In this document: positions 20,772-48,263 of the stretch, piece by piece | Layout of the letters: every line of letters begins with the position of its first letter | Position numbering within the stretch: the first letter of the stretch is position 1 | Source: a virus | Length of the DNA stretch: 64,000 nt | IMG/VR virus record: IMGVR_UViG_3300045988_159959 | Direction: 5' to 3' (one strand) | Translations under genes and position numbers: made by a program | The notes under the pieces: model-generated | The model's input: the letters and a program-made list of their open reading frames with translations, nothing else | Told to the model about the DNA's origin: nothing | Databases searched by the model: none

Positions 20772-20775
20772 CACT

Positions 20776-21165
20776 ATGATTAGGTTAAATAAATTTCTTT
20801 CCTTGTTTGTCTCTAAAAAGGCAGATAAGGAAAGAGTAAAAGGAAAGAACAGAATGAAGTATTATACAAAAGACAATATCAAGTTTGTGACATGGAAATA
20901 CAACGCTGGCGTACCGTGTTTCTATCTGAACCAATCTGTAGATATTGTAAAGGTACTTCTACTGAACGATTCAAGAAAATTACAAGGTTTTTTCTGTAAA
21001 GGGTATTTTGTAAAGAATATTCTAAAGAAGAACAAGAAGAAATTTTTGCCGGGCAACTTTTATCAGTTCCTTTATAAATTGGTATATGTCGGCTACAAAA
21101 TAGAAAACGGAGAAAGACTGAAAATGTATCAGCTAAAAGAGGTTGCATGTTTTGAAAGTGTTTGA
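20776..21165 (+). CDS. hypothetical basic protein (129 aa)
   Basis: The ATG ORF starts 5 nt after the previous stop. An internal ATG at 20854 is also possible. Confidence 0.5.
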   Translation: MIRLNKFLSLFVSKKADKERVKGKNRMKYYTKDNIKFVTWKYNAGVPCFYLNQSVDIVKVLLLNDSRKLQGFFCKGYFVKNILKKNKKKFLPGNFYQFLYKLVYVGYKIENGERLKMYQLKEVACFESV

Positions 21166-21283
21166 CCCGACAAGAAAAGATTTGTATATCTTTGCTATGT
21201 GTAGAAAATTTTATGTTTGTTATATTATTAGTTTAGCTATCCAATTGGTATTTAGTAGTTTAATTAGTTTATGTTATTATTTT

Positions 21284-21316
21284 GTCCTTACTGGTACGCG
21301 ATGTATAGGTAAGGAC
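21284..21316 (+). terminator. intrinsic terminator-like hairpin
   Basis: GTCCTTAC..17 nt..GTAAGGAC is followed by TTTTGTTTTTG. It ends the 16.2-21.2 kb rightward unit. Confidence 0.5.
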
Positions 21317-21341
21317 TTTTGTTTTTGTCCTTTCTTTAGTG

Positions 21342-21349
21342 TAGCTTTG
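21342..21349 (+). promoter_or_regulatory. -7 box TAGCTTTG
   Basis: Perfect TAnnTTTG match, 30 nt upstream of the ATG at 21380. Confidence 0.4.
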
Positions 21350-21379
21350 CCATATAATAACCATTAAATTTTTGTCAAA

Positions 21380-21550
21380 ATGAAACTACAAAAGTCTGTA
21401 GACAAACCTTCTATAGTTTGCGATAACTGTAGATACAGAGTCGAATGTCCCTATGTGGACAAATCAGAATGTTTTGAATATAACAGTGCACAACTTTCCA
21501 AATCTCAAATAGAGGAATTAAACAATGAAGAAGGGGAAACAACTTACTAA
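21380..21550 (+). CDS. small Cys-rich protein (56 aa, not in the ORF track)
   Basis: Read by hand: MKLQKSVDKPSIVCDNCRYRVECPYVDKSECFEYN.. with 4 Cys. Overlaps the next gene start. Confidence 0.4.
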   Translation: MKLQKSVDKPSIVCDNCRYRVECPYVDKSECFEYNSAQLSKSQIEELNNEEGETTY

Positions 21551-22664
21551 TAAAGATTTACCGGCTATTTCCCAAAAGGACTTTGTGGAAATAATAGAAC
21601 AAGCTCCAGAAGTGATCCAGACCGCTTCCAGTGAACTGAAAAACGCTTTTGTTGCTTTGGAAACGGCGGAAAGGGCTCTCTCTGAATCGTCTTACCGTTT
21701 CTTTGTCTTTGAAGGCAAGGACGGGGAGGAGATTACAGCCGATTTGAAAAGCTATTCTGCGAAGGGTTTTATCCTTCGTCACGGTGGAAAAGAATCGGAC
21801 GTAAAGAAAGCACAACGACATAAAGAAATGTATGTTATGCCTCTCATAGAAGAAATAAAGAGGTGCAAAGAGGCATTCAACGACATTTATCGAAAAGAAA
21901 TGCTTTCTTCCGTCACGCCGGAGATCATGTCCTATATCGTGAAACTGTTTGGGGAGATGAACGGCGTTGATGATGTCCAGAAAATCCTAAAGGAAGAAAA
22001 GAAGATAAAACTTACCCAAAAGGAACTGCAAGCCATCTTCGCCAAAAAGAAAGCGGAAATTGAAAGCAAACGTGCCGTATTTCTTGCTTCATCCAATCAA
22101 TATAAGGTGGCAACGGAAGCCGGTAGGCTACAGATCATAAACACTATCATAATAGACCTACAGCACCGGTATCAAAAATACCTTGCAGAAGAAAAGGAAG
22201 AAAAGGCATTGATATTCGAGCGGGAAATAAGAAACATGCTCGAACAAGCCCGGAAAGAAGTAAAAGGCAATGAACTAAAGCTGACTGTAGACGGGAAAAT
22301 AGACATTGTCGCTACTTTGCACGGGCAGGAAAACGTTTCTCGTGTGTTCCGTACACTTCCCATCAATTCTATTATAATAGGTCTTGTCGCTGCAAAATCC
22401 GGACTTGATCCTACAGTATTGGTGCATCAGCTTGCAACAAGCTACTACAAGGACTTCAACGGTTTCAACAAAACTATTCTGGGTAGGGAAAAGATTATGC
22501 TTCCGGGCGATCTGATCCGTGCAGCCAATTGGGAAGAACTGGAAAAGCAAAACAAGAAGTTCTTAGACGAAATGACGCCTTATGAAGTGCAGGAGGCTAC
22601 TTATATAGATGATGAAAGAAAAGCCTCTGTAAAGGACAGATTAAAGGCTTTACGGCTTAAATAA
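21525..22664 (+). CDS. hypothetical protein (379 aa)
   Basis: Long ATG ORF, helical and charged. No motif recognised. Confidence 0.65.
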   Translation: MKKGKQLTNKDLPAISQKDFVEIIEQAPEVIQTASSELKNAFVALETAERALSESSYRFFVFEGKDGEEITADLKSYSAKGFILRHGGKESDVKKAQRHKEMYVMPLIEEIKRCKEAFNDIYRKEMLSSVTPEIMSYIVKLFGEMNGVDDVQKILKEEKKIKLTQKELQAIFAKKKAEIESKRAVFLASSNQYKVATEAGRLQIINTIIIDLQHRYQKYLAEEKEEKALIFEREIRNMLEQARKEVKGNELKLTVDGKIDIVATLHGQENVSRVFRTLPINSIIIGLVAAKSGLDPTVLVHQLATSYYKDFNGFNKTILGREKIMLPGDLIRAANWEELEKQNKKFLDEMTPYEVQEATYIDDERKASVKDRLKALRLK

Positions 22665-23344: not shown

Positions 23345-23610
23345 TACTATTAGTTTTTAAAGACGAAAGGGCTAAGAACCGATTTTTACAGATTGTGTTC
23401 AAAGCCCTTTCTTGATTAACGTAATTAATTAACAACGAGATTGTTAATGTGCCTACTCTGTTAAGGATTTTCGGCATCCTCCTTTATTAAAAACTTTAGA
23501 TTTATATAGAGGAATATAGAATAGATTTTATTATTTCATGATCTCACCTCCTTTCTTTAATAGGGTTTGCAACTCGATTGACTATGTGAATAATTATACA
23601 GGAAAATCAG

Positions 23611-26190: not shown

Positions 26191-27663
26191 TTATAAACGC
26201 CATTCTCCTGTATTTATATGACAATAAACCAATTCTTCTTTTGCTCTTGTAATAGCAACAAATTTCAAACATTCTTCTGCATACAGAGCTTTAGGTGTCT
26301 TTGCAAATTTAGAAGGAATGAGTTCAGGGTTTAAAAAGAAAACCCGTTTTGCTTCCAATCCTTTGCTTTTATGTATGGTAGAGAGAATGATGCCGGTTTT
26401 ATCATCAGAGAAAATGTTTTTGATCTTTTGTTTCAAAGCTAAAAAAGAACCGGGGAAACGCTTGTATAGAATTTCAATGATAGAAACTTTTTCTTTCAAA
26501 GCTACATAAGAAGCGTTGTTAGTTATAGCGATTTCAGACAAACCTCTTTTTTTTAGTTTAGAGGCTTTATCTTCCAATAGGAGGTATAGGTCGTCCAAGC
26601 GTTCCTGTCCATCTAAAAGCCGGCAAAGACTTTCCCCGAAGTCCCGTCCCATGATGGATACTTTCTTTCCTCTTTCCAGCAACATAATAAAAGTGACAAC
26701 TAAAGGATAATTGTTCCTACAAAGAATAAAATCCCCATTTTCAGCTTCAAAAATGTCACCACTTCTTACAATGCCTTCTTTTGCTGTGGGAACACATTCT
26801 GTACCGGGAAACACTTCATTCGCTACTTCGACAATTTTCTTTGCACATCTGTAAGTAACAGAAAGCGGTAGACAAATGGTATTCGGCATTTCTTTTATGG
26901 AATTAAACACATCCAAGTCAGAACCCATAAAATTATAAATAAGCTGTTTTGAATCTCCTACAGCAATAAATCTTCCTCTTGGCTTGATGTATCTTTGTAA
27001 AATTTCCTTTTGAAGTGTGAATAAATCCTGTCCTTCATCTGCCATAACAACTTGATACTTAGGAAAGTTTATTTCATCCACAAAATTATATGGAATCCAT
27101 AGCATGTCTGGAAAGTCCATTTTGAAAGATTTGTTGCCTTGTATTTTAGCACAATCTTTTCTCCATCTTTCATTGATTTTATTTAGATTACTTATCATTG
27201 ATTTTTCATAATCCAAATCATATTCAATACAAAGCGCAGAGATATTTTCTTCGTTGATTTCACAAAGCGACAACCTAATCTTTTCCCATAATTCTTGTAA
27301 GGCAAAATAATATCGCATTTTCTCTTTGTATTCTTTTTTCCTAAAATCAAATAATTCCATACAAAGAGAAAAACATTTATTCTCTTCAAGCTGCATACGG
27401 AACCTAAAATTTTTCATTAATGTACGAAGTCCCATTGAATGAAAAGTATTACATTCTACTGTAGTAGGCAGTTTTGTTTTTAATTCTTCTGCAATACTTT
27501 TGTTGAACGCCATAAACAAACAACTTGTTCCTGTCGGCGTTCTGTTGCATAACTCTTTTAGTGTAAAGGTTTTACCGCTACCCGCCGTTGCTTCTATTAC
27601 CATGTTTTTATTGGTATTCTCGTAAGCATCGAAAATAGCCAACTGGTACTTGCTCCATTCCAT
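26191..27663 (-). CDS. UvrD/PcrA-like superfamily 1 DNA helicase
   Basis: Walker A EATAGSGKTFTL; VMADEGQDL; TIHKSKGLEA; VAITRAKEEL. Confidence 0.85.
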   Translation of the reverse strand: MEWSKYQLAIFDAYENTNKNMVIEATAGSGKTFTLKELCNRTPTGTSCLFMAFNKSIAEELKTKLPTTVECNTFHSMGLRTLMKNFRFRMQLEENKCFSLCMELFDFRKKEYKEKMRYYFALQELWEKIRLSLCEINEENISALCIEYDLDYEKSMISNLNKINERWRKDCAKIQGNKSFKMDFPDMLWIPYNFVDEINFPKYQVVMADEGQDLFTLQKEILQRYIKPRGRFIAVGDSKQLIYNFMGSDLDVFNSIKEMPNTICLPLSVTYRCAKKIVEVANEVFPGTECVPTAKEGIVRSGDIFEAENGDFILCRNNYPLVVTFIMLLERGKKVSIMGRDFGESLCRLLDGQERLDDLYLLLEDKASKLKKRGLSEIAITNNASYVALKEKVSIIEILYKRFPGSFLALKQKIKNIFSDDKTGIILSTIHKSKGLEAKRVFFLNPELIPSKFAKTPKALYAEECLKFVAITRAKEELVYCHINTGEWRL

Positions 27664-35104: not shown

Positions 35105-35617
35105 CTAAATCAGCCCTTTTCGTCTTGCATATTCGGCAATCAAAATACCATCCCTATCCGGGTGTTTTATAAGTACTTCCGGGAACAACCTTTTCCCTAT
35201 ATCCAAAGAAGCCTTTTTAAGCTCTGGTGCACCTGTAATCCCCTTTGGTAATAGCTCTCTTTGCCATTCCTTAGAATCCACAAAAATGTATGGCACTTGG
35301 TAAAGCTCCAGTACGGTTAATTCTGCCTCCAATGCACGCATAGCAGAACAAGTCGCTTCAAAGCGTGCAGGATTCTTCATGGGACGTTCAACGATCGCAA
35401 CGCATGGTGCGTGTTCTTGTAGGTCTGCAATAATTTCCGCCAACACCTTTACATCCACACGAGAGATATTTTTCTTTGTTTTTGTATAATCCTGACCGGA
35501 AATAACAGGTGTTTTTACCATATTGTAATAGGTGAGGTCTTTCCCTACTGTTCCGATCGAACCGGTTACACCGTTGTCTATCCCAATGTAAAATTTCAAT
35601 TCTGTTTCTTTACTCAT
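35105..35617 (-). CDS. ruvC: RuvC-like Holliday junction resolvase
   Basis: YIGIDNGVTGS (first Asp), VAIVERP (Glu), C-terminal HPDRDGILIAEYA. Size and order fit the RuvC fold. Confidence 0.65.
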   Translation of the reverse strand: MSKETELKFYIGIDNGVTGSIGTVGKDLTYYNMVKTPVISGQDYTKTKKNISRVDVKVLAEIIADLQEHAPCVAIVERPMKNPARFEATCSAMRALEAELTVLELYQVPYIFVDSKEWQRELLPKGITGAPELKKASLDIGKRLFPEVLIKHPDRDGILIAEYARRKGLI

Positions 35618-38025
35618 TGTTCAATACGGCTTATACCGTTCTCCTTTATTATTTTAAGTGTTTTACACTTAGCGTTTTCATTCGAAATATGGGTAGTAAC
35701 CAAAATAGGATACTGAATAAATTCCAATGCTTCGATCACATCATACAGACTTTCTTTCGATAACCCTTCTGTGATTTCATCAATGGATAGGAATTGTAAG
35801 CCTCCCCATCTGTTTGTTTCGTTTATCATATTCTGGATAGCGATAATAAGAGCTATTTCTACCCTTGCACGCTCGCCACCACTGTAGTACCAAAAGTTTT
35901 CTGCTTCGTCCCGGACGACATACGGAGTTATTTCTTCTTTGATATCTCCGTCCGCTTTTGTCTTAAATCCTTCTATTAAGATACGAAGGTCGCTATTTTC
36001 TGCTTTCAGGATATTGTTCGCTCTTGATTGAATATTTTTCAACTGTTCCAACGCAAGGTACATTTTGAAAGACTTAAACCTACCGATCCATTCTTTTTTC
36101 TTGAATAGAAGGGCATCCAAATCGGAAAGCTCTTTGTCGTATCCGGCAATCGAAAGCATAGTGTCCTCTATTTGTTTTTCTTGTGAAGACACATCCACTT
36201 TCGTAGCTTTTTCTTTCTTGATTTCCTTTATCTGCTTTTCATTGTCTTTGATATCGACCAAGTTGGATTCAACCTTTTCAGACAAAGATTTCTTTTTTCT
36301 TTCCAAAAAAGAAATGGTACTTTTAGTCTGTTCAATATCATCATTGATCTTGTAAAGAGAAGTATTGATTTCTTGTGCCGACTGACGAATCTTGTCGATT
36401 TCATCTTCTTGTTCGTTTTTCAATTGAATGAAAGAAGAAATAAGTTCTTCATATTCTTTCAAAGATTCGTCCAAGGATTCCATCTCGGTAACAACTTCCT
36501 TCTCCTGTTTTCCTATTTTCACCTTCTTCTTTTCTTCCTGTTCCAGTGTAGTGTCTTTCAGTGTAAGGAATTTGTGCTTACATTTTGGGCAAGTAATCGC
36601 ACCGGATAAGTTTACAAGGACTTTTCTAAGGGACACTTTCAGTTCATCATGAATTTTTGAAAGTTCTTCTTTCATTTCCAACACTTCATTCTGATTTGCT
36701 TTTGTTTCCCCCAATTCCTTTTTAACAGATTCAATCACTTCCTGAATTTCTTTGGTAGAAGGAAGTTGGTTTTTCTTCTTTTCTTCTTCTTTTAAAAGAG
36801 CTTCCAGTTCTTCCAAAGTGGAATTATTTTCCTTGATGCTTTTGTCTGCACGACCAATTTCATACCGGAAAGAATCAATTTCTTCTTTCAGAGATTTTAT
36901 CATACCTTCTCTTTTTTCGATACGAAATAGTTTGTCGGCTTCAAAGTCAAAATTGGCAGCATCTTCTATTACCTGTTTTAGTGCCTCTATACTACCTTCC
37001 GCACGATCCTTTTTGCTTTGAATAGCAAGTTTTTGAGAAGATAAAGTATCCAGTTCTTTTTGAATGATATCTTTTGTTCCGTCCAAAAAGTCGTAATTAA
37101 TAAACCGGCTGATAAGAGCCAACTTATCCGTATTGGAGCTTTTAAAGAACGATTTGTAGTATTCCTTACAAATAAGGAAATAGCTTTTCAAATCTTCCGG
37201 AGAAATAGCGATCCAAGAAAGGATATAGTTATTCCCATCTTTTACGGTAGCAAGTTCTACCGGTTTACCGTTCAAAGACACATTTAGTTTACTGCTTCCT
37301 TTTAAGGGCAAAATGCGCTCGATAGAGAGAGTTTCTTTTCTTATTGGACACTCTATATCTAAAGAAACTTTTGCTTCCTTCTCACCCCTTCTAATGAGCT
37401 TTTTATCCACACTGCTTCGGTAATTGTTCCCGGTAACGGCAAAATAGACAGCTTGCTGCATGGATGAATTATGGGTAGGAATGTAGTTGTTTGTAACAAA
37501 CATACCGTCTTCACTGGAAACAGTTATGCACTGTTGTTCTTCCGCACCCAAACAAGTGAAGGCAATCATCTTTCGGGAAGGTTTACTCAAGCATTCCGGC
37601 ACTTCAAAAAAGACTTCTTCGTCTTTCGATCTTTTCATGATTTCTTCAAGCGAGATTACATACCAGTCTTCGCCTTTATGCAAACGTACTTTCCATAAGT
37701 GACTTCTGTTGCATTTGACTTCCGTCCCGTCAGAAAATGTAATCTTATAGGCAATGTCAATGTCATGGAAAGGAATAGCTCTTACCACTTGATACGCACC
37801 GGAAGGATGAAGGATAACATCTCCTACCTTTATTTCTCTCATTTTTACAAACCCATTAGGAGTAAGGATGTCTGCATCCATTGTTAAGGCTTTCCCGCTA
37901 CCATTACTTCCTTGATTGTCGTCTGTTTTATTTAACCCTACAAGTGCAGTTACCCCATCTTGAAATTCGTATTTAAAGTGTTCAAATGACACGAAATTTG
38001 TTGCTTCAATTCTAATCGGCTTCAT
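35614..38025 (-). CDS. sbcC: SbcC/Rad50-like (T4 gp46-like) ATPase, interrupted by a mini-intein
   Basis: The Walker A motif GSNGSGK|..|SS is split by an intein. Long coiled-coil with a CPKC zinc hook; signature YSGGERA; Walker B LQFLSIDE. The ATG at 38025 is preferred to 38100. Confidence 0.85.
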   Translation of the reverse strand: MKPIRIEATNFVSFEHFKYEFQDGVTALVGLNKTDDNQGSNGSGKALTMDADILTPNGFVKMREIKVGDVILHPSGAYQVVRAIPFHDIDIAYKITFSDGTEVKCNRSHLWKVRLHKGEDWYVISLEEIMKRSKDEEVFFEVPECLSKPSRKMIAFTCLGAEEQQCITVSSEDGMFVTNNYIPTHNSSMQQAVYFAVTGNNYRSSVDKKLIRRGEKEAKVSLDIECPIRKETLSIERILPLKGSSKLNVSLNGKPVELATVKDGNNYILSWIAISPEDLKSYFLICKEYYKSFFKSSNTDKLALISRFINYDFLDGTKDIIQKELDTLSSQKLAIQSKKDRAEGSIEALKQVIEDAANFDFEADKLFRIEKREGMIKSLKEEIDSFRYEIGRADKSIKENNSTLEELEALLKEEEKKKNQLPSTKEIQEVIESVKKELGETKANQNEVLEMKEELSKIHDELKVSLRKVLVNLSGAITCPKCKHKFLTLKDTTLEQEEKKKVKIGKQEKEVVTEMESLDESLKEYEELISSFIQLKNEQEDEIDKIRQSAQEINTSLYKINDDIEQTKSTISFLERKKKSLSEKVESNLVDIKDNEKQIKEIKKEKATKVDVSSQEKQIEDTMLSIAGYDKELSDLDALLFKKKEWIGRFKSFKMYLALEQLKNIQSRANNILKAENSDLRILIEGFKTKADGDIKEEITPYVVRDEAENFWYYSGGERARVEIALIIAIQNMINETNRWGGLQFLSIDEITEGLSKESLYDVIEALEFIQYPILVTTHISNENAKCKTLKIIKENGISRIEQ
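37468..37890 (-). mobile_element. 141-aa mini-intein, Ala1 with a WCT triplet (class 3-like)
   Basis: Starts ALTMDADILTPNG directly after GSGK and ends IPTHN|SS. Block B is NRSHLW (His then Trp two residues later). Block F is QQCITV (Cys where Asp is usual). Block G is THN. No endonuclease domain. Confidence 0.7.
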
Positions 38026-39094
38026 TTTCTTCTTCCTTGTTTTCAAATGTTGTTTCTTTCTTTCTGAACGTATCAAGAACGTCCTTTTTGATCTTTTCAA
38101 ACAGTTTTGTGTCTTCCAAAAGGCGTTTTCTTGCTTTCGGGAACCCGAATCCTATTTTTTCTTCCCCATAATAGATGTAGGTTCCCTTTTTGGAAAGCAC
38201 ACTCAAATCAAGTCCCATATTTACAATTTCCATCACCTTGTCAATACCTACCCCAAACCGGATAATGATTTGACAAGTTTTAAAAGGCGGTGCAACCTTA
38301 TTCTTTTTACAGGTTATTTTCACCTTATTGGAAACTTGCGTTTCCCCTTCCTTTTCCGATCCCACACGAGCAAGTTCAATTCTCTGACTTGCATAGAAAG
38401 GGATAGCAAAACCTCCCGGTGTTGTGGTGGCTGCGCCATATCCACCTATATTAGATCGGATTTGATTGATACAAAAAAGAATACATCCGGTCTGCTTACA
38501 GATATTTTTCAAAATATTTACCTGGGAACTTAAAAGGCGTGCCGTAAGCCCTATATGTGCGTCCCCTGCTTCTCCATTCAAAAGAGCGGTAGGAACAAGA
38601 CCGGCAATAGAATCAATCACAACAAGACCAATAGATTCTTCATTGCACATTTCCTTTGCTATTTCAAGCACTTCTTCTGCGGTAGAAGGTTGGGAAAGGA
38701 TAAACTTGTCAGGGGACAAATCAATTCCTATTGCTTGCATGTATTTTGGGTCAACAGCGTTTTCCGTATCAAGATACCCTACTGCTTTCCCTGATTTCTG
38801 CATTTCTGTTACCAAGTGAAAAGCAATGCTTGTCTTGCCGGAAGAAAAACCTCCATAGGCTTCCACAACACGACCTTTTGCCCATCCTCCACCAAGTATT
38901 TCATCCAGCAAATAAGAACCGGAATGAACAAACTCAACATCTTGCCTTCTTCCGGCTATAGCATCCTTACCAAAACGATCTTCTATTCTTGAAATAAGAT
39001 CGCCCAAACGATTAGGTTTTTTGACTTCTACAGGTTGTTCTTCTGTTACCGTCTGGACTTCTTCTACCTTTTTAGTTTCCTTCTTTTTCGACAT
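38012..39094 (-). CDS. recA: RecA recombinase
   Basis: Walker A GGFSSGKTS; VVIDSIAGL; GDAHIGLTARLLSSQ; CINQIR; TTPGGFAIPFYASQRIEL. Collinear with bacterial RecA. Confidence 0.85.
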   Translation of the reverse strand: MSKKKETKKVEEVQTVTEEQPVEVKKPNRLGDLISRIEDRFGKDAIAGRRQDVEFVHSGSYLLDEILGGGWAKGRVVEAYGGFSSGKTSIAFHLVTEMQKSGKAVGYLDTENAVDPKYMQAIGIDLSPDKFILSQPSTAEEVLEIAKEMCNEESIGLVVIDSIAGLVPTALLNGEAGDAHIGLTARLLSSQVNILKNICKQTGCILFCINQIRSNIGGYGAATTTPGGFAIPFYASQRIELARVGSEKEGETQVSNKVKITCKKNKVAPPFKTCQIIIRFGVGIDKVMEIVNMGLDLSVLSKKGTYIYYGEEKIGFGFPKARKRLLEDTKLFEKIKKDVLDTFRKKETTFENKEEENEAD

Positions 39095-40127
39095 ACAGCA
39101 ATTTGTTTAAAATTTCCTTTCCCTCTTTTTCGTCATATCCGTTTTCTTTACAGAAAGACGAAAATCTATCTTCTATGTCCTTTGTTTCCAAAGTCTTCAC
39201 TTCTACAGTAGGAGCAAGGACTTCCTTTATTTCAATTTCCTTGAATTTCTTTTTGATATCCACACCTTCTTTTGTAAAAGCATCTTTATCAAAAGCATCA
39301 AGTGAAGATTGCTCTCCCCAAACCTCTACCCTTACACGAGCGGTAGGGTTTTCTTTCTTGAACTTGTTAATAAGTGCCACCGCTTGCTTGTGTGGTGTTT
39401 CTTCTAAGTCAATTTCCAGTTTTTTGAATACTGTCCCTTTTGTGGAAGGGATAAGATCGACTTCCAAATCAGAATCCAGAAGCCAAAAACCCTTCTTTTC
39501 ATCTTCCCCAAAATTGTTCTGTTGGACACTTCCCAAATGGTAAATGTTACTACCTACGCGTTGGTAATTATGATAGTGTCCTAAATACACTTTTTTGAAC
39601 ATCTCAAACATGGAAGGCTTTAGTTCACTTTTTACTTCTGTTCCGTCCATGTTTTTACTACCGGTTACAGCAAAATGCCCAAATAGGATATTCTTCTTTC
39701 TCTTGTCCCCGATTTCTGCCAATTCGTCAAGTAAAATGTCATCAGTGAAAAATGGCAGGAAAAAGCAATAAACCCCTTCTATCTGCATACCGTCCAATTC
39801 TTCCACCAAAGTAAAAGAAGGATGATGTTTAAAGGCTGTAAGAAATGACTTTTGACTTGAATAGGATGTTTTGTCATGATTACCGGGAATACAAACTATT
39901 TGATGTCCGTTTTCATCATACGCTTCCAGTATTTCATGAAGTGTAGAAAGGCATACTTCCCTTTGAGATACCCTGTTGTCAAAAACATCACCCAGCCAGA
40001 TATGAGTTTTAATACCCTTTTTGTCGGCTATATCCATTTCTTCCAATAAAATATCTTTTATGGTAGAAGCGTTTCCCTCTGACAGATGATGGTCGGTTGA
40101 GATTATAGCTAAATATTTTTTGCTCAT
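39072..40127 (-). CDS. sbcD: SbcD/Mre11-like (gp47-like) nuclease
   Basis: Calcineurin-type phosphoesterase motifs: STDHH, GDVFD, GNHD, GHFAV, GHYH. Confidence 0.8.
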   Translation of the reverse strand: MSKKYLAIISTDHHLSEGNASTIKDILLEEMDIADKKGIKTHIWLGDVFDNRVSQREVCLSTLHEILEAYDENGHQIVCIPGNHDKTSYSSQKSFLTAFKHHPSFTLVEELDGMQIEGVYCFFLPFFTDDILLDELAEIGDKRKKNILFGHFAVTGSKNMDGTEVKSELKPSMFEMFKKVYLGHYHNYQRVGSNIYHLGSVQQNNFGEDEKKGFWLLDSDLEVDLIPSTKGTVFKKLEIDLEETPHKQAVALINKFKKENPTARVRVEVWGEQSSLDAFDKDAFTKEGVDIKKKFKEIEIKEVLAPTVEVKTLETKDIEDRFSSFCKENGYDEKEGKEILNKLLYVEKEGN

Positions 40128-41679: not shown

Positions 41680-42210
41680 TTATTTCTCTTTTATGATTAA
41701 AAATGTGTTGATCTCACCTTCTACCAGATTGTCCAGAAATTCTTCCGGTGTCACCTTCGGAACCAACCCTGTCAATTTCTTGTCCTTTGACTGTAAAGCC
41801 CAATAGAGACTGTCTATTTCCGCCAAATGCTTTTTCTTTTTGACCAAATCCTTTTGCATGGCATGTAGTTCCGGGTTGATTGTCAAAATATCGTCCAAAG
41901 AACTTTCCGTAAGTTTCACAAGTCCTATGTCTTCTACCTTCACCTTTCCACCGTTTACAATAGATTCACGTCTTATCTGTGTGGCAAGTTGCGCTTTATA
42001 GACATTAAATTCCACTTTTGCAGATTCATATTCCGATTCTGCTTGTGACCTAAGAAGCCCTACTTTATTCAGTAAGACGGAACAAGTAGCGATTTCTCCA
42101 TATAAATTAGCGTGATCTATGGAAGTTACTGCGTCCATGTCCAATTCGTTTTTCAAATCATTGGAGAGTAAAACTATTGCTTTATCTCCTATATTTCTTA
42201 CCAATTTCAT
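41680..42210 (-). CDS. hypothetical protein (176 aa) between SSB and DnaE
   Basis: ATG ORF overlapping the dnaE stop. Helical and charged. Confidence 0.6.
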   Translation of the reverse strand: MKLVRNIGDKAIVLLSNDLKNELDMDAVTSIDHANLYGEIATCSVLLNKVGLLRSQAESEYESAKVEFNVYKAQLATQIRRESIVNGGKVKVEDIGLVKLTESSLDDILTINPELHAMQKDLVKKKKHLAEIDSLYWALQSKDKKLTGLVPKVTPEEFLDNLVEGEINTFLIIKEK

Positions 42211-45101
42211 ACCCCAAGTTTTATGAATTTACTATTACTGTTTACTTGCAATACATATTCTTCTTTGAACTTGTCAAAGTTAGCCTTTCCGCTTAATAGG
42301 AGAAGGTTTTTCTTTGTGGACTGAAAGAACTCTGCGTTTTCCTCATAATCGTCCGGGAAAATGACTACACGAAGGAACTTGTAATTGCTTTCAAGCAAAA
42401 GATTGGCAAACCGTCCTTTCTTTCCTTCTCTTTCTTCCACTTCTAAAACGTAACCGCCTACCATAACCATTTCATAGGTTGATCCGTCATAGTTCTGCAA
42501 ATCTTCCACATTGTAGAAAACCCCATTTTTGACTTTTGGTTTTAAATATTCTCTTACCAGCTCTTCATAGTCGAAGAAAGCAAATCCGGACTTGTTCTTT
42601 TGCTGCAATAGCCACCACCAATCCTTACCAATCTTTTTCTTTTCAAAGGCAAGAAAATATTCATCCTTTTCTTTATCAATTTTGATCTTATTCTTTTCTC
42701 GGCACTTTCCAAGCATGAACTCCCTTGCAGAAAAGATATTGGAAAATTCCCTTGTTTCATCCATCATATCGAACGCACCAGAATAGATAAGATTTTCAAT
42801 AACGGATTTATTCACTGCCGATCCTTTGAACGTATGACGATCAATAAATTCAGCCAAAGAAAAATACTCCCCATTTTTAGAGCGTTCTTCCATAATCTGA
42901 TTCTGTGCCTTTTCTCCTACTTGTTTTGTTGCATTGATTGCCCAATAGATACTATTATCTTTTTTGTCAGCCACAATGTTTATATCAGACTTGTTGATAT
43001 TTACAGGTTTGATTTCGATCCCTTCTGTCTGCTGCATTTCATTGACGTATTGAGGAAAGTCATCTTCACTTGCACGGGACAGAGCAACCGACCAAAATTC
43101 CAAAGGATAATGCACTTTCAGCCATAAAGAATTGTAAGCATTAATAGCGTAACTTGCTGAATGACTGTTACATGTTATAATCCCTTGATCTGTACAATAA
43201 TTATGATTCGGATCATCTATTTCCACATCGTAAACATTTTCTATTTTATCCAGTTCAATACTTACTATTTTCGATAAAGCAGATGGATATCCTTTCTCAC
43301 CTCTTTTCATCCTGCCAAATTCACGATAATGAATTTTCTTGTGACAAGAAGGACAGATAGCAATAAGATTTTCATCTTCATTATTTCTCCTGTTCCCGTC
43401 TCTATGGTGAATTTCCAATCTGCCTTCTTTCCCACAATTTTTACAAACTCCAAATCCACCATTTTTCTCTCTGAAAGATCCAAACTTAGAAGATTCTCCA
43501 TTTGTTTTTACAAAACCCATGTGTCCTTTTTTAGAGTTTAAAGATTCCGGATTGTATTTACTCCAATTTTTACCCCTCATATCGGTAAAATTGTATCGCT
43601 GACTATCCGTTTTCTCATACGGCATTTGCACATACAGATTATCTTCTCCTACTCTCAAATCTTTGCACATAACTTTACCTCTTTGAGTAGGGAATTTATG
43701 GTTGTCTGTTACAGATACAAAACGACCGTCCTCTAAAGTTATTTTATAAGTTTGCCTTACCCCAGCAAACCTAATATCTTTAATTTTTCGATCTCTTATA
43801 CGTCCATCTTCACACATAGTAAGACAAGTTCCATAGCCAACTCTCAAATATTTACTCCTAAGAGGAGTCCAATTGTTTGCTTTTGCAAATGCAAGATCGT
43901 TCTTAATCAAATACATTTCTTCGATAGTAGGTTGTCTTTTGTTTTTGGGACAAGAGTTTCTTAAAATTCTGTAACTGCCTGATATACAGCGGTTAAAAGC
44001 ATACAAACCAAATTTTTCCATCTGTTTCCAGAGTGCTTCTGCGCTTTCTTTCGTTACCCCTTTTGAAGCAAATCTCTTTACATACCCATCCACAAATTTA
44101 GGATGAATTTTCTCTACTTTGTCCTTCTTTTTTTTTGCAATTGCAGCACGAGCAACATCTGCTTCTTCTTCCGAAAAACCAGCAAGAACTTGCACCATTT
44201 TAACGATCTGTTCTTGGTATACTTGCACAGAATAAGTATTTTTCAGAATTTCTTCCGCTCCAATAGGGTATTCCGGCTCTTTTTCTCCGTTTTTCAAAGC
44301 AATGTAGTCCATGTGAAAACCATTTTCCATTGGCCCGGGACGGAACAAGGAAAGTGCTGCCACTACATCATCCATGTTTTTAGGCTTCAATTTTTGAGTA
44401 TAAGCGCACAATCCTTTTGCTGAAAACTGAAATATATCGCTAAGCCAACCGTTTGCAAAATATCTGTAAACCTCTGGATCATCATATTCTATATCAGAAT
44501 AGAGATTGATTTTCCTACCCGTATTCTTTTCAATCAGATTCAGAATATCAGTGAATTTGTCCAATTGCTCAATACCAAGAATATCTTCTTTCAAAAAACC
44601 GGCTTCGTCCATTTCTCCACCTTCCCATTCACTGACAATTAAATCGCCTGATTTTCTAACCGGACACCACTCATACATTGTCTTTTCTTTTGGAAAGATC
44701 ATCATAGCACAAGCATGAATAGAAGCTGCCTTTTGTTGTCCAAGAAGAAGAAAAACAATATTCATCATTTCTGGATATTTATTCAGAAATTGATTTACTT
44801 CTGACTTCTTGCAAGCAAGTTTCAAAAAATCTTCTTCTGTCTTTACATCTTCTATCATTTTAGTAAGCCTCCTAAGAGTAGGAATTGAGACTCCATAGAG
44901 CTTTCCTACATCGTTTATAGCCTGTTTTATCTGTAAAGTGGTATATGTACCCACAGAACAAACTTGCGAAGCTCCAAAACGATTTTCCATATATTGTTTT
45001 ACTGCCGGTCGGTATTCTCCCGGCACATCTGTATCAATGTCTAACGCTCCCCCTTGTCCGAAAACAAGGGGGAAATTGATCGGGGAGCGATCCCGGTACA
45101 A
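42207..45101 (-). CDS. dnaE: DNA polymerase III alpha (DnaE-type), C-terminal fragment (palm catalytic Asp onward), containing an intein
   Basis: GGALDIDTDVPG..R..V..Y....FG...VCSVGTYTT aligns with DnaE PDFDVDF...YG...V..I.TFGT; later FN(R)|intein|SHSASYA. The track start is a TTG; homology begins near codon 18. There is no credible independent start. Confidence 0.85.
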   Translation of the reverse strand: MYRDRSPINFPLVFGQGGALDIDTDVPGEYRPAVKQYMENRFGASQVCSVGTYTTLQIKQAINDVGKLYGVSIPTLRRLTKMIEDVKTEEDFLKLACKKSEVNQFLNKYPEMMNIVFLLLGQQKAASIHACAMMIFPKEKTMYEWCPVRKSGDLIVSEWEGGEMDEAGFLKEDILGIEQLDKFTDILNLIEKNTGRKINLYSDIEYDDPEVYRYFANGWLSDIFQFSAKGLCAYTQKLKPKNMDDVVAALSLFRPGPMENGFHMDYIALKNGEKEPEYPIGAEEILKNTYSVQVYQEQIVKMVQVLAGFSEEEADVARAAIAKKKKDKVEKIHPKFVDGYVKRFASKGVTKESAEALWKQMEKFGLYAFNRCISGSYRILRNSCPKNKRQPTIEEMYLIKNDLAFAKANNWTPLRSKYLRVGYGTCLTMCEDGRIRDRKIKDIRFAGVRQTYKITLEDGRFVSVTDNHKFPTQRGKVMCKDLRVGEDNLYVQMPYEKTDSQRYNFTDMRGKNWSKYNPESLNSKKGHMGFVKTNGESSKFGSFREKNGGFGVCKNCGKEGRLEIHHRDGNRRNNEDENLIAICPSCHKKIHYREFGRMKRGEKGYPSALSKIVSIELDKIENVYDVEIDDPNHNYCTDQGIITCNSHSASYAINAYNSLWLKVHYPLEFWSVALSRASEDDFPQYVNEMQQTEGIEIKPVNINKSDINIVADKKDNSIYWAINATKQVGEKAQNQIMEERSKNGEYFSLAEFIDRHTFKGSAVNKSVIENLIYSGAFDMMDETREFSNIFSAREFMLGKCREKNKIKIDKEKDEYFLAFEKKKIGKDWWWLLQQKNKSGFAFFDYEELVREYLKPKVKNGVFYNVEDLQNYDGSTYEMVMVGGYVLEVEEREGKKGRFANLLLESNYKFLRVVIFPDDYEENAEFFQSTKKNLLLLSGKANFDKFKEEYVLQVNSNSKFIKLGV
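43167..43988 (-). mobile_element. 274-aa intein with an HNH endonuclease domain in DnaE
   Basis: Inserted between YAFNR and SHSASYA. Starts CISGSY. Block B is SVTDNHKF. HNH domain CKNCGKEGRLEIHHRDGNRRNN..NLIAICPSCHKKIH. Ends VYDVEIDD..GIITCN|S. Confidence 0.8.
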
Positions 45102-45170: not shown

Positions 45171-46400
45171 CTATTCATTTTCTTTAATACACATAGGATG
45201 TCTCTTCCCTCTGCATAATTTGATTTTCCTATACGAAGCATCTTTTGGATTATTCCCTTCGATATCCCGGATATTGAAACTACCTGTTTTTCTTCTACCA
45301 TATATAAACATTATTTTATTGTTATATAATACTTTATCAAATAAACGAAATCCAAAAACCTCAAATGGAGATTGATTCATACGTTTCAATCCTCCCTTCT
45401 GAATCTTTATTTTATGAATCTGGCGATTATGTCTTCTAATCAATTTTATCCTATAAAGGCAATTAATTCTATCAGCTTCGAAGTTCTTGGATATAATAAA
45501 AGCATCAGATGCATGAGATTTCTTTATGTTATGAATTATACGGTTGTGTTTCGTTACATAACCGTATGTCATGAATACGTTTGGATACAAACCTTTTAAA
45601 CAATCACACAACCTCCATCTCATTATCCCCATTACGGCAGCGTCGCGAAGCGACTTGCCTCTCCGTATCTTCAAGTCTATCTTACCTTTATGATAATCAT
45701 CATGACATGTCTCACATAAGGTTATTAAATTGGATGGAGAATCACCACCGGTTTTCCTTGATTCAATATGATGAACGTTAAGGACCTTGTTTTTTGACTT
45801 ACCCTTGCAATGACAGCATTTGTGACCATCACGGTATAAGACATATTCCCTTACGTTCCAAAAACCAAGTTGTTCTCCTTCTTGATATAATTTACCCTCT
45901 ATGTCAGGATTCTTGATCTTTTGTGTATCAAATTGAGCTACTTCAATAACGAGGCGAGTAATTGGCAAAATAGAATACACATTTTGAATAACGCGAATAT
46001 GAGCGTCTATCTTGTTCTGCACCGAAGGTGCTAACCATCCTTCACGTTTTGATTTTATCCTATTATCAAAACGAGGTTTTCTATACCTCAATCTTGACCG
46101 CCTTGTCCGTCTTAGCTCTCTCCTTGTAGACAAAAGATCTACCATATCACTTCTCAGAGTCACTTCACTCGCATAAAGCTCTTTGCTTTTCGTCGTTGCT
46201 GACAAACCAACATGTTTGGTTCCGGCATCAACGCCTAACGTAATTTCTTGTTTGTAACTATCGGATATGTACGTCAATCGGATGGTAAACGGACATAGGT
46301 TTACAACGACCGCCTGTTTTGTTTTAAGCAGTCTCCTAACCTTTCCATGCCTTGTTGTTGGCATAAGCGGTTTACCTTCTATGTTCTGTACATACACCAT
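45171..46400 (-). CDS. iscB: IscB RNA-guided nuclease (PLMP, split RuvC, bridge helix, HNH)
   Basis: EGKPLMPTTRHGKVRRLL (PLMP domain); LGVDAGTKHVG (RuvC-I); RRELRRTRRSRLRYRKPRFDNR (Arg-rich bridge helix); LVIEVAQFD (RuvC-II); CCHCKG..NVHHI..NLITLCETCHDDYH (HNH); SHASDAFII (RuvC-III); C-terminal FRLFDKV..GRRKTGSF. Confidence 0.9.
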   Translation of the reverse strand: MVYVQNIEGKPLMPTTRHGKVRRLLKTKQAVVVNLCPFTIRLTYISDSYKQEITLGVDAGTKHVGLSATTKSKELYASEVTLRSDMVDLLSTRRELRRTRRSRLRYRKPRFDNRIKSKREGWLAPSVQNKIDAHIRVIQNVYSILPITRLVIEVAQFDTQKIKNPDIEGKLYQEGEQLGFWNVREYVLYRDGHKCCHCKGKSKNKVLNVHHIESRKTGGDSPSNLITLCETCHDDYHKGKIDLKIRRGKSLRDAAVMGIMRWRLCDCLKGLYPNVFMTYGYVTKHNRIIHNIKKSHASDAFIISKNFEADRINCLYRIKLIRRHNRQIHKIKIQKGGLKRMNQSPFEVFGFRLFDKVLYNNKIMFIYGRRKTGSFNIRDIEGNNPKDASYRKIKLCRGKRHPMCIKENE

Positions 46401-46709
46401 TATTCACAAACAACATAATGTTTATTCAACATAAGTCAGGATAAAAATCCTGTTAGTACCCATCGCCAATGTTATCAAAGGTTTGTTGTAAGCAACACTG
46501 TTTCCCAAATACAAAAACTGTTTAATCACTTACCTTAGAACTACAGACTTGGGCAAATATCCGTAGGTAACTATCTATTCTTTAATAACGTAGTTCTTGT
46601 TTCAGAACTTAGGCTAATAACCAGATCCGATTTTACGGATGTATTAAAATGGGATAATGATTTTATCTGATTTTAATACTATTTGCGGTTATATTCTTGT
46701 TACTTGATA
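46401..46709 (-). ncRNA. candidate IscB omega RNA (HEARO-type) or other structured RNA upstream of iscB
   Basis: 309 nt without an ORF, directly 5' of iscB, where IscB guide RNAs are encoded. Minus-strand hairpins: ATCCG-taaaat-CGGAT, GTTCT-gaaaca-AGAAC, CAGGAT-tttt-ATCCTG. It may extend 5' to about 46829. Confidence 0.5.
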
Positions 46710-48263
46710 TTAGACTAAAATGTCATCTCCTACTTTCAACGCTTTAGTTGTTATATTGATAGGAAGGATTTTCTTTTTCCCGTCTGCAAGAGTTACCTCA
46801 TACATCTTTTTCTTTTCAAAATGTCCTAATCGTCCTCTTGTCAAAAATCTTTCAAAAAGTAAGTTAAACTTCAAAGGATGTGTATTTATGATACCAAAAA
46901 GATAAGAAATTAAAGAACCGCTTGCACTTCCGCGACCCGCACCTAACAAAATGTTATTCTTTTTACACCAATTGACAATATCACGCAAAATCAAAAAGTA
47001 ATCCACAACATCACCAAACTTAATAATCTTAGATTCTCTTTCGATCCTTTCCACAAGCACATCTTCCGAGTAATCTTCCAAAAGTTCCGGTTTGTTCTCC
47101 AACCCTTCATAAATCAAAGAATCAAACATATCTTCATTGGAAGTGTATTTTTTCTTTTCTTCTTTTGTCATTTCATAACGGGGAAGATGTCGACTGTCAG
47201 TAGGAATTTCAAAGTTGCAATTTTCCGCAATCATATCAGCGTTAGTCCTTGCTACCATATAAAATTCCTCCCCTCTTTCACTATCCCCGAACAAAGAAAG
47301 AAGTTCTTCCATGTAAGTCGCTTCATCTTTGAAATACTGATTGCCGGATTTGTAGTTTACTTTCCCGTCAATCTTATTTACGACTTCCCGAAGTATGGCA
47401 TATTCCGGCTCAATATAATAAGCATCACAAATAGCTACGGGCTTCATTTTGGACTTATAGAACTGTTCAAAGTTCATCAAATAGAAGGTATCCCTATCGT
47501 TCTTTGTGTATTTCACGGTATCTACTTGCCAAAACACATTGGGTTTGTTTCTCAAAAGGATAGGAACATCTTCAAGCTGTATTGTTTTTGGATCGAATAC
47601 AATGTACACATCTGAAACATGTTCCGACATGTCTTTTGGAGAAACGAATTTTCCATTATCACCACAGTTCAAAATCTTGTTTAATGCAAGCAAATGCTGC
47701 CAGCCCTTTTCATTCTTTGCATAGACTTTGTAAGTATAGACAATATCCTTCTTTTCATCCTTTACCGGGACTTCCAGACCAAACACAGGGATGATTCCTT
47801 CTGCCTTGCAAGCGTTTTGAAATTTGAGCGCACCTGCCAAAGTTGCTTTTTCAACAATCCCCAATCTTTCTATTCCTAAGAATTTGGCTTTCTTTACCCA
47901 ATCCGGGTACAATCCCGTACCATTCAAAAGTTCAAACGATCCATGTACTCCCAAAAAATTAGTGGAAAGACCTGCCATTTCACTTTGTCCTCTCCATTTT
48001 ACCCGGTTAAGTTTAGGCTCGTTTTCCTTCCCTTTGTCCAATGTGTACCATACACCACCAAGACGAAAGATGTAACCATCTTCTTCGGTGCGTTCACAAT
48101 CCCAACGAAAATCCTCTGAAAAGAAATATCCATCTTCGTTAGGCTCAAAAACTTCGTATGATTTTCCCTCAAAGAAAACAGTGTAATTTTCTTTGTCGAG
48201 AGAGTATTGTATGGTATTGGAAGAAAGGTATTCTTCCAACTCATTTAAAAGTCGATCCATCAT
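46710..48263 (-). CDS. dnaE: DNA polymerase III alpha (DnaE-type), N-terminal fragment (PHP domain to LFERFL), with a 39-codon read-through tail
   Basis: PHP-like LGVHGSFELLNG..AKFLGIERLGIVEK..GIIPVFGLEV; later GAGRGSASGSLISYLFGII..HPLKFNLLFERFLTRGR, then non-homologous LGHFEKKKMYEVTLADGKKKILPINITTKALKVGDDILV-stop. Confidence 0.85.
   Translation of the reverse strand: MMDRLLNELEEYLSSNTIQYSLDKENYTVFFEGKSYEVFEPNEDGYFFSEDFRWDCERTEEDGYIFRLGGVWYTLDKGKENEPKLNRVKWRGQSEMAGLSTNFLGVHGSFELLNGTGLYPDWVKKAKFLGIERLGIVEKATLAGALKFQNACKAEGIIPVFGLEVPVKDEKKDIVYTYKVYAKNEKGWQHLLALNKILNCGDNGKFVSPKDMSEHVSDVYIVFDPKTIQLEDVPILLRNKPNVFWQVDTVKYTKNDRDTFYLMNFEQFYKSKMKPVAICDAYYIEPEYAILREVVNKIDGKVNYKSGNQYFKDEATYMEELLSLFGDSERGEEFYMVARTNADMIAENCNFEIPTDSRHLPRYEMTKEEKKKYTSNEDMFDSLIYEGLENKPELLEDYSEDVLVERIERESKIIKFGDVVDYFLILRDIVNWCKKNNILLGAGRGSASGSLISYLFGIINTHPLKFNLLFERFLTRGRLGHFEKKKMYEVTLADGKKKILPINITTKALKVGDDILV

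Follow-up and report, generated by a model that had tools for sequence, protein, structure and literature searches.

Class 3 inteins are described as monophyletic. A list of 2009 held 36 of them, 'most inserted in an ATPase P-loop' (PMC2807308). The number counted in nr had grown to 1701 by 2020 (PMC7891396), and the insertion point between the P-loop Lys and the following Ser or Thr has been termed the 'classic' site (PMC5050341). The prototype is the DnaB intein of Mycobacteriophage Bethlehem (MP-Be DnaB), and other phage members occupy TerL, Cas4/RecB and helicase exteins. With the intein described here they share phage origin, the class 3 signature, Thr or Ser at position +1 and a preference for P-loops (PMC2807308, PMC5050341, bioRxiv 10.1101/2025.01.02.630785), whereas inteins of the MP-Be DnaB type mostly measure 225-360 aa, carry a LAGLIDADG domain and come from actinobacteriophages. 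Dependence on Cys F:4 and a branched thioester in block F have been shown for other class 3 members (PMC2807308, PMC5222942), and the rule for the class is Ser or Thr at +1, rarely Cys (PMC5222942).

Among the closest known counterparts of the present case are the DnaB inteins of Mycobacterium smegmatis (Msm DnaBi1, 6BS8) and M. chimaera (DnaB1, 6RIX/6RIY), class 3 mini-inteins that are likewise about 140 aa long and endonuclease-free. Msm DnaBi1 lies in the P-loop of DnaB, and its +1 Ser is the Mg-binding Ser of that loop (PMC6195587). A different type of relative is gp41-1, a compact cyanophage-like mini/split intein of class 1, which uses Cys1. When Ala1 and the Trp-Cys-Thr (WCT) triplet were grafted onto gp41-1, mainly C-cleavage rather than splicing was obtained (PMC7664689), and motifs alone are therefore no proof of class 3 splicing.

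In the 64,000-nucleotide stretch of viral DNA analysed here (the window; IMG/VR record IMGVR_UViG_3300045988_159959), an SbcC/Rad50-like ATPase gene carries an insert with these features. Our results indicate that it is very likely a class 3 mini-intein that is functional and has become fixed in a gut-phage lineage, at the classic site between Lys and Ser of Walker A. The phages of this lineage probably have Bacteroidota as hosts; extein relatives of this phage are found in phages of Bacteroides, Chryseobacterium, Tenacibaculum and Cellulophaga.

The insert and its host gene

The enclosing open reading frame spans 35614..38100 on the minus strand, and its true start codon, an ATG at 38025, yields an 803-aa precursor and is the start chosen by gene callers in homologues. 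Besides the motifs listed in Table 1, the precursor contains the TTH of the His-loop, and the CPxC of the zinc hook is invariant in the homologue alignment. The 662-aa product spliced in silico matches PHROG 77 ('SbcC-like subunit') over the whole length (E 3.6e-46) and also Rad50 ATPase structures (E 1e-5). A split ABC ATPase head, a coiled coil with a CxxC hook and an adjacent SbcD gene thus all place the protein in the SbcC/Rad50 family. The spliced ATPase would be expected to work with the neighbouring SbcD/Mre11-like nuclease, whose homologues carry a Metallophos domain in their gene tables.

Table 1. Coordinates of the ATPase precursor, its intein and the adjacent nuclease gene in the window.
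Feature	Position	Strand	Basis and residue codons
SbcC/Rad50-like ATPase precursor gene, including intein	35614..38025	-	803 aa and stop; homologues with the same gene model
N-extein, 45 aa, C-terminal end is the Walker A fragment GSNGSGK	37891..38025	-	Lys(-1) 37891-37893 (codon check)
Class 3 mini-intein, 141 aa (ALTMD...PTHN)	37468..37890	-	translation, alignment, fold model
Block A (ALTMDADILTPNG)	37852..37890	-	Ala1 37888-37890 (codon check)
Block B (GTEVKCNRSHLWKV)	37687..37728	-	codon check; Cys B:6 (C60) 37711-37713; His B:10 (H64) 37699-37701; Trp B:12 (W66) 37693-37695
Block F (EQQCITVSSEDGMFVT)	37492..37539	-	codon check; Cys F:4 (C121) 37528-37530
Block G (NYIPTHN)	37468..37488	-	codon check; Thr G:5 (T139) 37474-37476; His G:6 (H140) 37471-37473; Asn G:7 (N141) 37468-37470
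C-extein, 617 aa, first residue Ser+1	35617..37467	-	Ser+1 37465-37467 (codon check)
Zinc hook CPKC	36580-36591	-	codon check of precursor
Signature motif YSGGE	35872-35886	-	codon check of precursor
Walker B LSIDE	35776-35790	-	codon check of precursor
SbcD/Mre11-like nuclease	39072..40127	-	PHROG 100 SbcD-like, E 2.2e-49

The insert translates to 141 codons (ALTMDADIL...NNYIPTHN) and lies exactly between Lys and Ser of Walker A (GSNGSGK, then S), so that the coordinates and residues originally given for it proved exact. Other splice boundaries were rejected, as a shift of either boundary by one residue breaks the Walker A motif of the spliced product. Since position 1 is Ala, the intein has no N-terminal nucleophile, and the Cys, Ser or Thr that marks class 1 at this position is missing. 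Alignment to intein-less homologues puts no Cys or Ser at position 1, the point on which the Ala1 assignment had been staked. The predicted initiating nucleophile is instead Cys F:4, within QQCITV. At the other end, the intein closes with H140-N141, followed by the nucleophile Ser+1. Because the insertion falls between the Walker A Lys and Ser, this residue would serve both splicing and Mg/ATP binding, doubling as the Walker A Ser and, as predicted from the sequence, as the second splicing nucleophile. The absence of an endonuclease domain was likewise borne out: a Pfam scan found no LAGLIDADG or HNH match in the 141 aa, and the fold model is a single HINT domain in which a linker of about 50 residues, containing one helix, joins block B to block F, as befits a mini-intein.

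Relatives and fold of the intein

A phmmer search of PDB chains with the insert gave gp41-1 as the best sequence match for the N-terminal half (engineered WCT variant 6RIZ, E 1.6e-9; wild-type 6QAZ, 1.2e-7); the class 3 intein of Msm DnaB matched with E 4.8e-6. With gp41-1 the insert shares the Thr before His-Asn, and it differs from it in having Ala1 in place of Cys1. The alignment to Msm DnaBi1 (6bs8) pairs A1, HxW, Cys F:4 and PTHN, with C121 matching Cys118 of Msm DnaBi1. Both mycobacterial inteins share with the insert Ala1, His-x-Trp, Cys F:4 and PTHN or VTHN followed by Ser, and both likewise sit between the Walker A Lys and Ser. Their host protein, however, is an actinobacterial replicative helicase rather than a phage SbcC/Rad50-type ABC ATPase, and identity to them is just 20-22%. 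At B:7 the insert has Asn where Msm has Asp (DxxH), it has a Cys at B:6 where Msm has none, and none of its residues aligns with Cys48, the redox partner in Msm.

An exhaustive phmmer search of 1.84 billion representative proteins yielded 7712 matches at E<=1e-3, and the likeness of the insert to inteins is far beyond chance. Residues were counted in the related inteins among the best 150 of these 7712 matches, and nearly all of these inteins carry the class 3 signature. In this set, block B has His B:10 in 228/229, Trp B:12 in 221/228 and Cys B:6 in 154/229, and blocks F and G have Cys F:4 in 211/212, Thr G:5 in 209/211, His in 205/211 and Asn in 211/211. Residue 1 of the 197 related inteins in the same best 150 is mainly Ala (A 137, P 27, C 6), the +1 residue is T in 116, S in 69 and C in 12, and about half (97/197) directly follow G.GK and are thus sited in a P-loop. 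The mini-intein shows minority states at B:7 (Asn, 13/229 relatives) and G:4 (Pro, 26/211), again among the best 150 of 7712.

The WCT signature had been read from HLW, QQCITV and the Thr before HN. All of these residues are present, and in an alignment of 27 mini-inteins, 24 of them class 3 inteins from other proteins, the only invariant columns are H64, W66, C121, T139 and N141. A class 3 profile built without the insert's own family matches it end to end with 148 bits (E 8e-48), while generic Hint/intein models give 13-17 bits and the curated Pfam and NCBIfam models all stay below their cut-offs. A word-indexed protein search found 3 proteins with the intein alone and 9 with an intein profile. 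Kinship with the TerL P-loop intein of the same window was considered and rejected, the two sharing just generic HINT similarity (26% over 68 residues).

The fold agrees with this assignment. An AlphaFold2 model with the alignment of 27 class 3 mini-inteins as input reached a pLDDT of 96.8 and a pTM of 0.89; an earlier run on a shallow 15-sequence alignment of the whole protein (pLDDT 69, C-terminal blocks <50) was discarded. Ranked by E-value, the Foldseek matches are headed by the class 3 DnaB inteins 6bs8, 6rix and 6riy (E 6e-9, TM 0.76-0.86), followed by gp41-1, and all 42 PDB fold matches at E<=1e-3 are intein, Hedgehog or BIL structures. Ala1, Trp B:12, Cys F:4, Thr G:5, Ser+1 and the grouping by sequence with class 3 inteins, together with the independent profile and the fold matches, uphold the class 3 identity proposed in the original prediction.

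The mini-intein is nevertheless an ordinary member of a large, already described group. Class 3 inteins are not confined to the mycobacteriophage DnaB and the Deinococcus Snf2 named in the original prediction, and the claimed extension of host and extein range stands in part. Among the papers covered by the literature search, none describes an intein in SbcC/Rad50 or in phages of Bacteroidota or of the gut, and SbcC/Rad50 is absent from the exteins listed in three surveys (PMC2807308, PMC5050341, bioRxiv 10.1101/2025.01.02.630785). The novelty was overstated, because the prevalence of class 3 inteins in ATPase P-loops of phage-type proteins had been noted by 2009, their count stood at 1701 in 2020 and our own search yielded relatives by the thousand. 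From this case the documented class 3 range gains an extein family, the phage SbcC/Rad50-like ATPase, and a virus group, human-gut phages of roughly 100 kb with relatives that infect Bacteroidota. It agrees with the established picture of class 3 inteins as phage-borne and P-loop-targeting, and opens neither a new mechanism nor a new kind of element. A compact, endonuclease-free class 3 intein of 141 aa with Ser+1, from a mesophilic source, could serve protein engineering.

Alleles at the SbcC site

The intein-less homologues P0021, P0026 and P0094 have an unbroken NGxGKS(G/S), and the alignment gap comprises exactly the 141 residues of the insert. Among the best 120 homologue clusters, 95 are intein-less and have S or T directly after GK, 13 have a 141-aa insert and 4 have a version of 347-363 aa, assigned as LAGLIDADG-bearing via Pfam PF14528/PF05204. 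All 17 inserts of intein-bearing homologues start with Ala and end in THN before Ser. An empty locus with the same gene order is found in an intein-less phage contig (L003/L004), and the intein is present in all SbcC homologues at >=80% identity, including clusters of 829 and 658 member sequences.

The long versions (P0022, P0023, P0024 and P0040, from related metagenomic phages) occupy the same site, with NGxGK before an intein running from A to THN and S after it, and share A1, HLW, QC(I) and THN with the mini-intein, from which they differ in carrying an endonuclease. With the endonuclease region removed they are collinear with it, at 45-48% identity. The mini-intein probably descends from a LAGLIDADG-bearing homing intein of the same site by loss of the endonuclease. 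Taken together, the empty, endonuclease-bearing and mini alleles of this site lay out the life cycle of an intein as a neat natural series.

Proposed splicing and alternative explanations

Modelled on experimentally studied class 3 inteins, splicing would proceed as follows. The gene would be translated to the 803-aa precursor with a broken ATP-binding loop, in which the intein folds as a HINT domain. As position 1 is Ala, the attacking thiol would be that of Cys121 (F:4), which, aided by His64 and Trp66, would attack the Lys(-1)-Ala1 bond and form a branched thioester. Transesterification would then pass the N-extein to Ser+1, cyclisation of Asn141, aided by His140 and Thr139, would free the intein, and an O-to-N acyl shift would give GSNGSGK-SS, an intact Walker A. 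The result would be an active 662-aa ATPase working with the adjacent SbcD/Mre11-like nuclease. That the intein splices and rebuilds the P-loop is very probable, given the purifying selection on it (see below); each chemical step, including the branched thioester on Cys F:4, we infer from its membership in the family.

As far as Ala1 goes, a class 2 (KlbA-like) route would be as compatible as class 3, and the authors of class 3 studies note that, as long as Cys F:4 has not been mutated, both routes are in principle open to signature-bearing inteins (PMC5222942). Class 2 by definition lacks the WCT triplet (PMC2807308), which is present here, and its scheme has a +1 Cys attacking (PMC7891396) where this intein has Ser+1, a residue unable to initiate splicing in class 3 inteins in earlier studies (PMC5222942). 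The relatives of the mini-intein are moreover class 3 inteins, the KlbA structure 2jmz is just match no. 42 in the fold search, and the class 2 route retains very little probability. It is vanishingly improbable that the insert is another HINT-type module, such as a bacterial intein-like (BIL) domain, or an ordinary domain inserted in an ATPase subfamily. Its best Pfam matches, all sub-threshold, are Hint_2 and PT-HINT rather than intein models, and BIL domains occur among the fold matches (nos. 24, 29 and 30), but the top fold matches are solved class 3 inteins. The insert also lies within the most conserved motif of its host protein, is exactly present or absent in syntenic genomes, ends in His-Asn plus a nucleophile and has endonuclease-bearing versions at the same site.

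A class 3 intein could still be decayed and non-splicing, a dead insert, with SbcC either inactive or able to work despite a large loop within the P-loop. The loss of the homing endonuclease and the fast-evolving linker region would fit such a state, of which the class 3-like intein of Arthrobacter FB24 is a known pseudogene case (PMC3196547). We consider it highly unlikely, as the catalytic and signature residues are intact in 14/14 mini-intein alleles, down to 80% protein identity, and dN/dS comes to 0.06-0.08 in the intein, against 0.04-0.06 in the exteins. With dS saturated, these values indicate selection on the intein's own sequence. In the two terminal splicing regions, intein residues 1-70 at the N-terminal and 111-141 at the C-terminal end, the three computable subregion estimates lie at 0.04-0.07. 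The exteins are under purifying selection too, with Walker A and B, the signature motif and the zinc hook kept, and a P-loop intein of RadA is reported to block ATPase function (PMC6195587). Purifying selection of this strength argues that the intein very probably splices.

Under the preferred reading of a functional class 3 mini-intein, the element could be a passive hitch-hiker or, which we regard as unlikely, a redox- or metal-sensitive switch on the phage Rad50-like nuclease complex. In such a switch, oxidative stress might reversibly block the catalytic Cys121, for instance through a disulfide bond to Cys60 (B:6), and SbcC would then become active solely in an anaerobic host, where the cytoplasm is reducing. 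Cys B:6, found in 154/229 related class 3 inteins among the best 150 of 7712 matches, is absent in the studied mycobacterial ones.

Between near-identical (95%-identical) phages, intein residues ~51-117 are far more diverged than their flanks, so that some of this patch must be weakly constrained or exchanged. The pattern suggests that intein alleles are still exchanged, although this intein has no endonuclease.

Boundaries and alleles of the SbcC intein

The SbcC-like precursor, read from its ATG at 38025, comprises 803 amino acids, a gene model that independent gene callers also gave for the homologues. Codon-by-codon inspection, by which all residue positions were placed, found every residue quoted in the original prediction of an Ala1, class 3-like mini-intein within Walker A, each where the prediction had placed it, and the insert is flanked by GSNGSGK upstream and SSMQQAVYF downstream.

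Features of the SbcC-like precursor and of other genes carrying mobile elements
Feature	Position	Strand	Remarks
SbcC-like precursor ORF	35614..38100	-	real start ATG at 38025
SbcC intein	37468-37890	-	141 residues on translation, ALTMDADILTPNG...NNYIPTHN
Ala1	37888-37890	-	first intein residue
Block B, GTEVKCNRSHLWKV	37687-37728	-	His64 = B:10, Trp66 = B:12
Cys60 (B:6)	37711-37713	-	four residues before block B His
Block F, EQQCITVSSEDGMFVT	37492-37539	-	Cys121 = F:4
Block G, NYIPTHN	37468-37488	-	Thr139 = G:5, then His140, Asn141
Ser+1	37465-37467	-	first residue after intein
DnaE-type Pol III alpha gene, two ORFs	46713-48263 and 42210-45101	-	break within conserved FERFL...DID region
DnaE intein (third), 274 aa, HNH endonuclease	43167-43988	-	Cys1; Pfam Intein_splicing 4e-6, HNH 4e-5
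IscB-like (RRXRR+HNH) ORF, 409 aa	45174-46400	-	in gap between the dnaE ORFs (45174-46661)
HEARO RNA (RF02033)	46452-46661	-	97.9 bits; precedes IscB-like ORF
TerL (large terminase, 929 aa) ORF	52462-55248	-	contains second intein
TerL intein, 365 aa, class 1 LAGLIDADG	53755-54849	-	Cys1; Pfam Hom_end_hint 8e-22, LAGLIDADG_3

A homologue search was made using the whole precursor protein as query, and the top 120 homologue clusters were classed by insert. The 141-residue insert was common to 13 clusters of 803 amino acids (80-95% identical), an insert of 347-363 residues with Pfam LAGLIDADG/Hom_end domains occupied the same site in 4 clusters of 1013-1029 amino acids, and 95 clusters of about 650-670 amino acids carried no insert and had an unbroken Walker A motif, NGxGK(S/T). 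In this comparison, which had been proposed together with the prediction, the insert-free homologues lack precisely the 141 residues of the insert. Each of the 17 inserts begins with Ala and closes with THN before a Ser, and shifting either boundary by one residue gives GSGNSS or GSGKAS, neither of which is a Walker A motif. Ala1 is therefore not an alignment artefact; with the boundaries fixed by Walker A, the Cys or Ser at position 1 that would have spoken against it did not appear. Gene order is the same in a syntenic, insert-free phage contig (L003/L004), namely SbcD-like, RecA-like, SbcC-like, a small downstream ORF, and ligase, the small ORF standing where the window has its resolvase-like gene.

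Without their endonuclease segment, the long SbcC inteins are collinear with the mini-intein, including the short linker, at 45-48% identity. On these alignments, the best reading of the mini-intein is a class 3 homing intein of the LAGLIDADG type that has lost about 220 residues. The single SbcC site, which is empty in some homologues and holds an endonuclease-bearing or a mini allele in others, displays the classical stages of intein homing. Compared with the related phage contig L002, the exteins are 95.4% identical in DNA, whereas the figure for the intein is just 79.7%. The additional differences cluster in nucleotides about 288-486 of the gene (intein residues about 51-117, approximately 37540-37740 of the window), where identity is 62-72%, against about 85-95% at both intein ends, and synonymous sites have diverged too. 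This pattern suggests a recombination patch or an exchange of intein alleles, beyond relaxed constraint alone.

Class 3 membership and expected splicing

All sequence features that define class 3 inteins are present. Among PDB chains, phmmer matched the class 3 DnaB intein of Mycobacterium smegmatis (6bs8, E 4.8e-6), with Ala1, H-x-W, Cys, and PTHN pairing residue for residue. When 1.84 billion representatives were searched exhaustively with phmmer, 7712 proteins matched at E<=1e-3, 1055 of them at E<=1e-10. The best 150 of the 7712 were re-aligned and paired into 197 whole inteins. Within this sample, the aligned segments had His B:10 in 228/229, Trp B:12 in 221/228, Cys F:4 in 211/212, Thr G:5 in 209/211, and Asn G:7 in 211/211 cases. 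Among the 197 whole inteins from the same 150 proteins, residue 1 was A in 137, P in 27, and C in 6, and residue +1 was T in 116, S in 69, and C in 12; 97 lie directly after G.GK, and 166 are longer than 200 amino acids.

When the intein was aligned with 24 mini-inteins of this sample from unrelated host proteins, the sole invariant columns were H64, W66, C121, T139, and N141. A class 3 profile of those 24, which leaves out the intein's own family, matched it end to end with 148 bits, against 13-17 bits for generic Hint and intein models. AlphaFold2, run on the same alignment, gave a confident HINT-fold model (pLDDT 96.8, pTM 0.89), for which the best Foldseek matches by E-value were the class 3 inteins 6bs8 and 6rix/6riy (M. 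chimaera; E 6e-9, TM 0.76-0.86), followed by gp41-1 and then by class 1 inteins, Hedgehog, and BIL domains. The suggested search of profiles and databases, together with the PDB and fold matches, thus agrees with class 3 assignment at the sequence level.

Class 3 motifs by themselves are no proof. Ala1 and WCT grafted onto the class 1 gp41-1 intein gave no splicing (PMC7664689), and the N-terminal half of our intein has gp41-1 as its best phmmer match in the PDB. Here the whole sequence is inside a natural class 3 clade and under selection. In comparisons of the window with two homologous contigs, dN/dS was 0.06-0.08 for the intein and 0.04-0.06 for the exteins; the N- and C-terminal splicing regions (residues 1-70 and 111-141) gave 0.04-0.07 in three computable estimates, and the linker a higher 0.19. 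No mini allele at the SbcC site has lost a catalytic residue, and the whole-protein search found the intein in all SbcC homologues at least 80% identical, including clusters with 829 and 658 member sequences. As long as an intein occupies the P-loop, the ATPase should be inactive, an effect that is reported for RadA and has been argued for DnaB (PMC6195587). Together, these observations argue that the intein splices and regenerates GSNGSGK-SS.

By analogy with studied class 3 members, Cys121, assisted by His64 and Trp66, would attack the Lys(-1)-Ala1 bond and form the block F branched thioester, Ser+1 would take over the N-extein, Asn141 would cyclise with the assistance of His140 and Thr139, and an O-to-N shift would complete the peptide bond. 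Ser+1 would then be the Walker A serine, the same double role as in the M. smegmatis DnaB intein 1, Msm DnaBi1 (PMC6195587). A Cys at B:6 (here Cys60) occurs in all SbcC alleles and in 154/229 relatives from the best 150 of the 7712 proteins; the studied mycobacterial class 3 inteins lack it. A structural role, metal binding, or disulfide pairing with Cys F:4 is possible; such pairing would make a redox trap like the one that the non-homologous Cys48 forms in Msm DnaBi1 (PMC6195587).

Host protein, phage, and range of class 3 inteins

Spliced in silico, the product has 662 amino acids and over its full length matches PHROG 77 ('SbcC-like subunit of palindrome specific endonuclease'; E 3.6e-46); it also matches Rad50 ATPase structures (E 1e-5). 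A zinc hook, CPKC, lies midway along the coiled coil and does not vary among homologues, and the signature motif (YSGGE), Walker B (LSIDE), and His-loop (TTH) are present as well. Flanking genes encode an SbcD/Mre11-like phosphoesterase, a UvsX/RecA-like recombinase, and a RuvC-like resolvase. Relatives of the extein in cultured phages come from phages of Bacteroides, Chryseobacterium, Tenacibaculum, and Cellulophaga, and in GenBank its sole close match, a 'Bacteriophage sp.' from human faeces, is unannotated. Given these matches, motifs, neighbours, and relatives, 'SbcC/Rad50-like ATPase of a putative Bacteroidota phage' is a fair label.

Class 3 inteins are far more numerous than the two examples named with the prediction. 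The class-defining paper of 2009 already drew on 36 sequences and placed these inteins in phage terminases and helicase-like proteins, 'most inserted in an ATPase P-loop' (PMC2807308), and the position between Lys and Thr/Ser of the P-loop has been named the 'classic' intein site (PMC5050341). By 2020, nr held 1701 class 3 inteins, 82.5% with LAGLIDADG motifs (PMC7891396), and 287 are reported from actinobacteriophages alone (bioRxiv 10.1101/2025.01.02.630785); our phmmer search adds thousands of relatives. Exteins named in the published lists consulted are DnaB, RecG, Snf2, TerL, Cas4/RecB, PhoH, IcmO, NrdHF, DNA helicase, and a minor capsid protein, and a literature search brought up no account of class 3 inteins with SbcC/Rad50 as extein, or from gut or Bacteroidota-type phages. 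Of the predicted extension of range, SbcC/Rad50 therefore stands as a new extein, and the phage group is probably new; the intein represents no new mechanism and is unsurprising to a specialist.

Other mobile elements in the window and its relatives

The TerL intein also splits Walker A between Lys and Ser (ARGAGK/CNLID...TVVHN/SYMW) and shares just generic HINT similarity with the SbcC intein (26% over 68 amino acids), so that one genome holds P-loop inteins of two different classes. The DnaE intein, in the C-terminal dnaE ORF, ends in Cys-Asn, not His-Asn (YAFNR/CISGSY...GIITCN/SHSASY), and is absent from the 690-residue DnaE C-part of L004. That contig shows the same two-ORF split (516 + 690 amino acids, 53 nt apart) without the IscB-like/HEARO element, while dnaE is uninterrupted (1427 amino acids) in the related contig L005; Rfam found no group I intron in the dnaE gap of the window.

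In L005, a UvrD-like helicase (19898-22249, + strand, 783 amino acids) carries an intein in motif III (VGDKKQ/CQPKG...GILTHN/CIYNF). Its counterparts in the window (26191-27663, 490 amino acids) and in L004 (508 amino acids) are short enough to be intein-free, and the intein load thus varies between genomes of this phage group. A region that is otherwise phage-like contains, at 23450-23484 (- strand), an Rfam match to DUF805b RNA (RF02914) of 53.6 bits, above the gathering score of 35.6.
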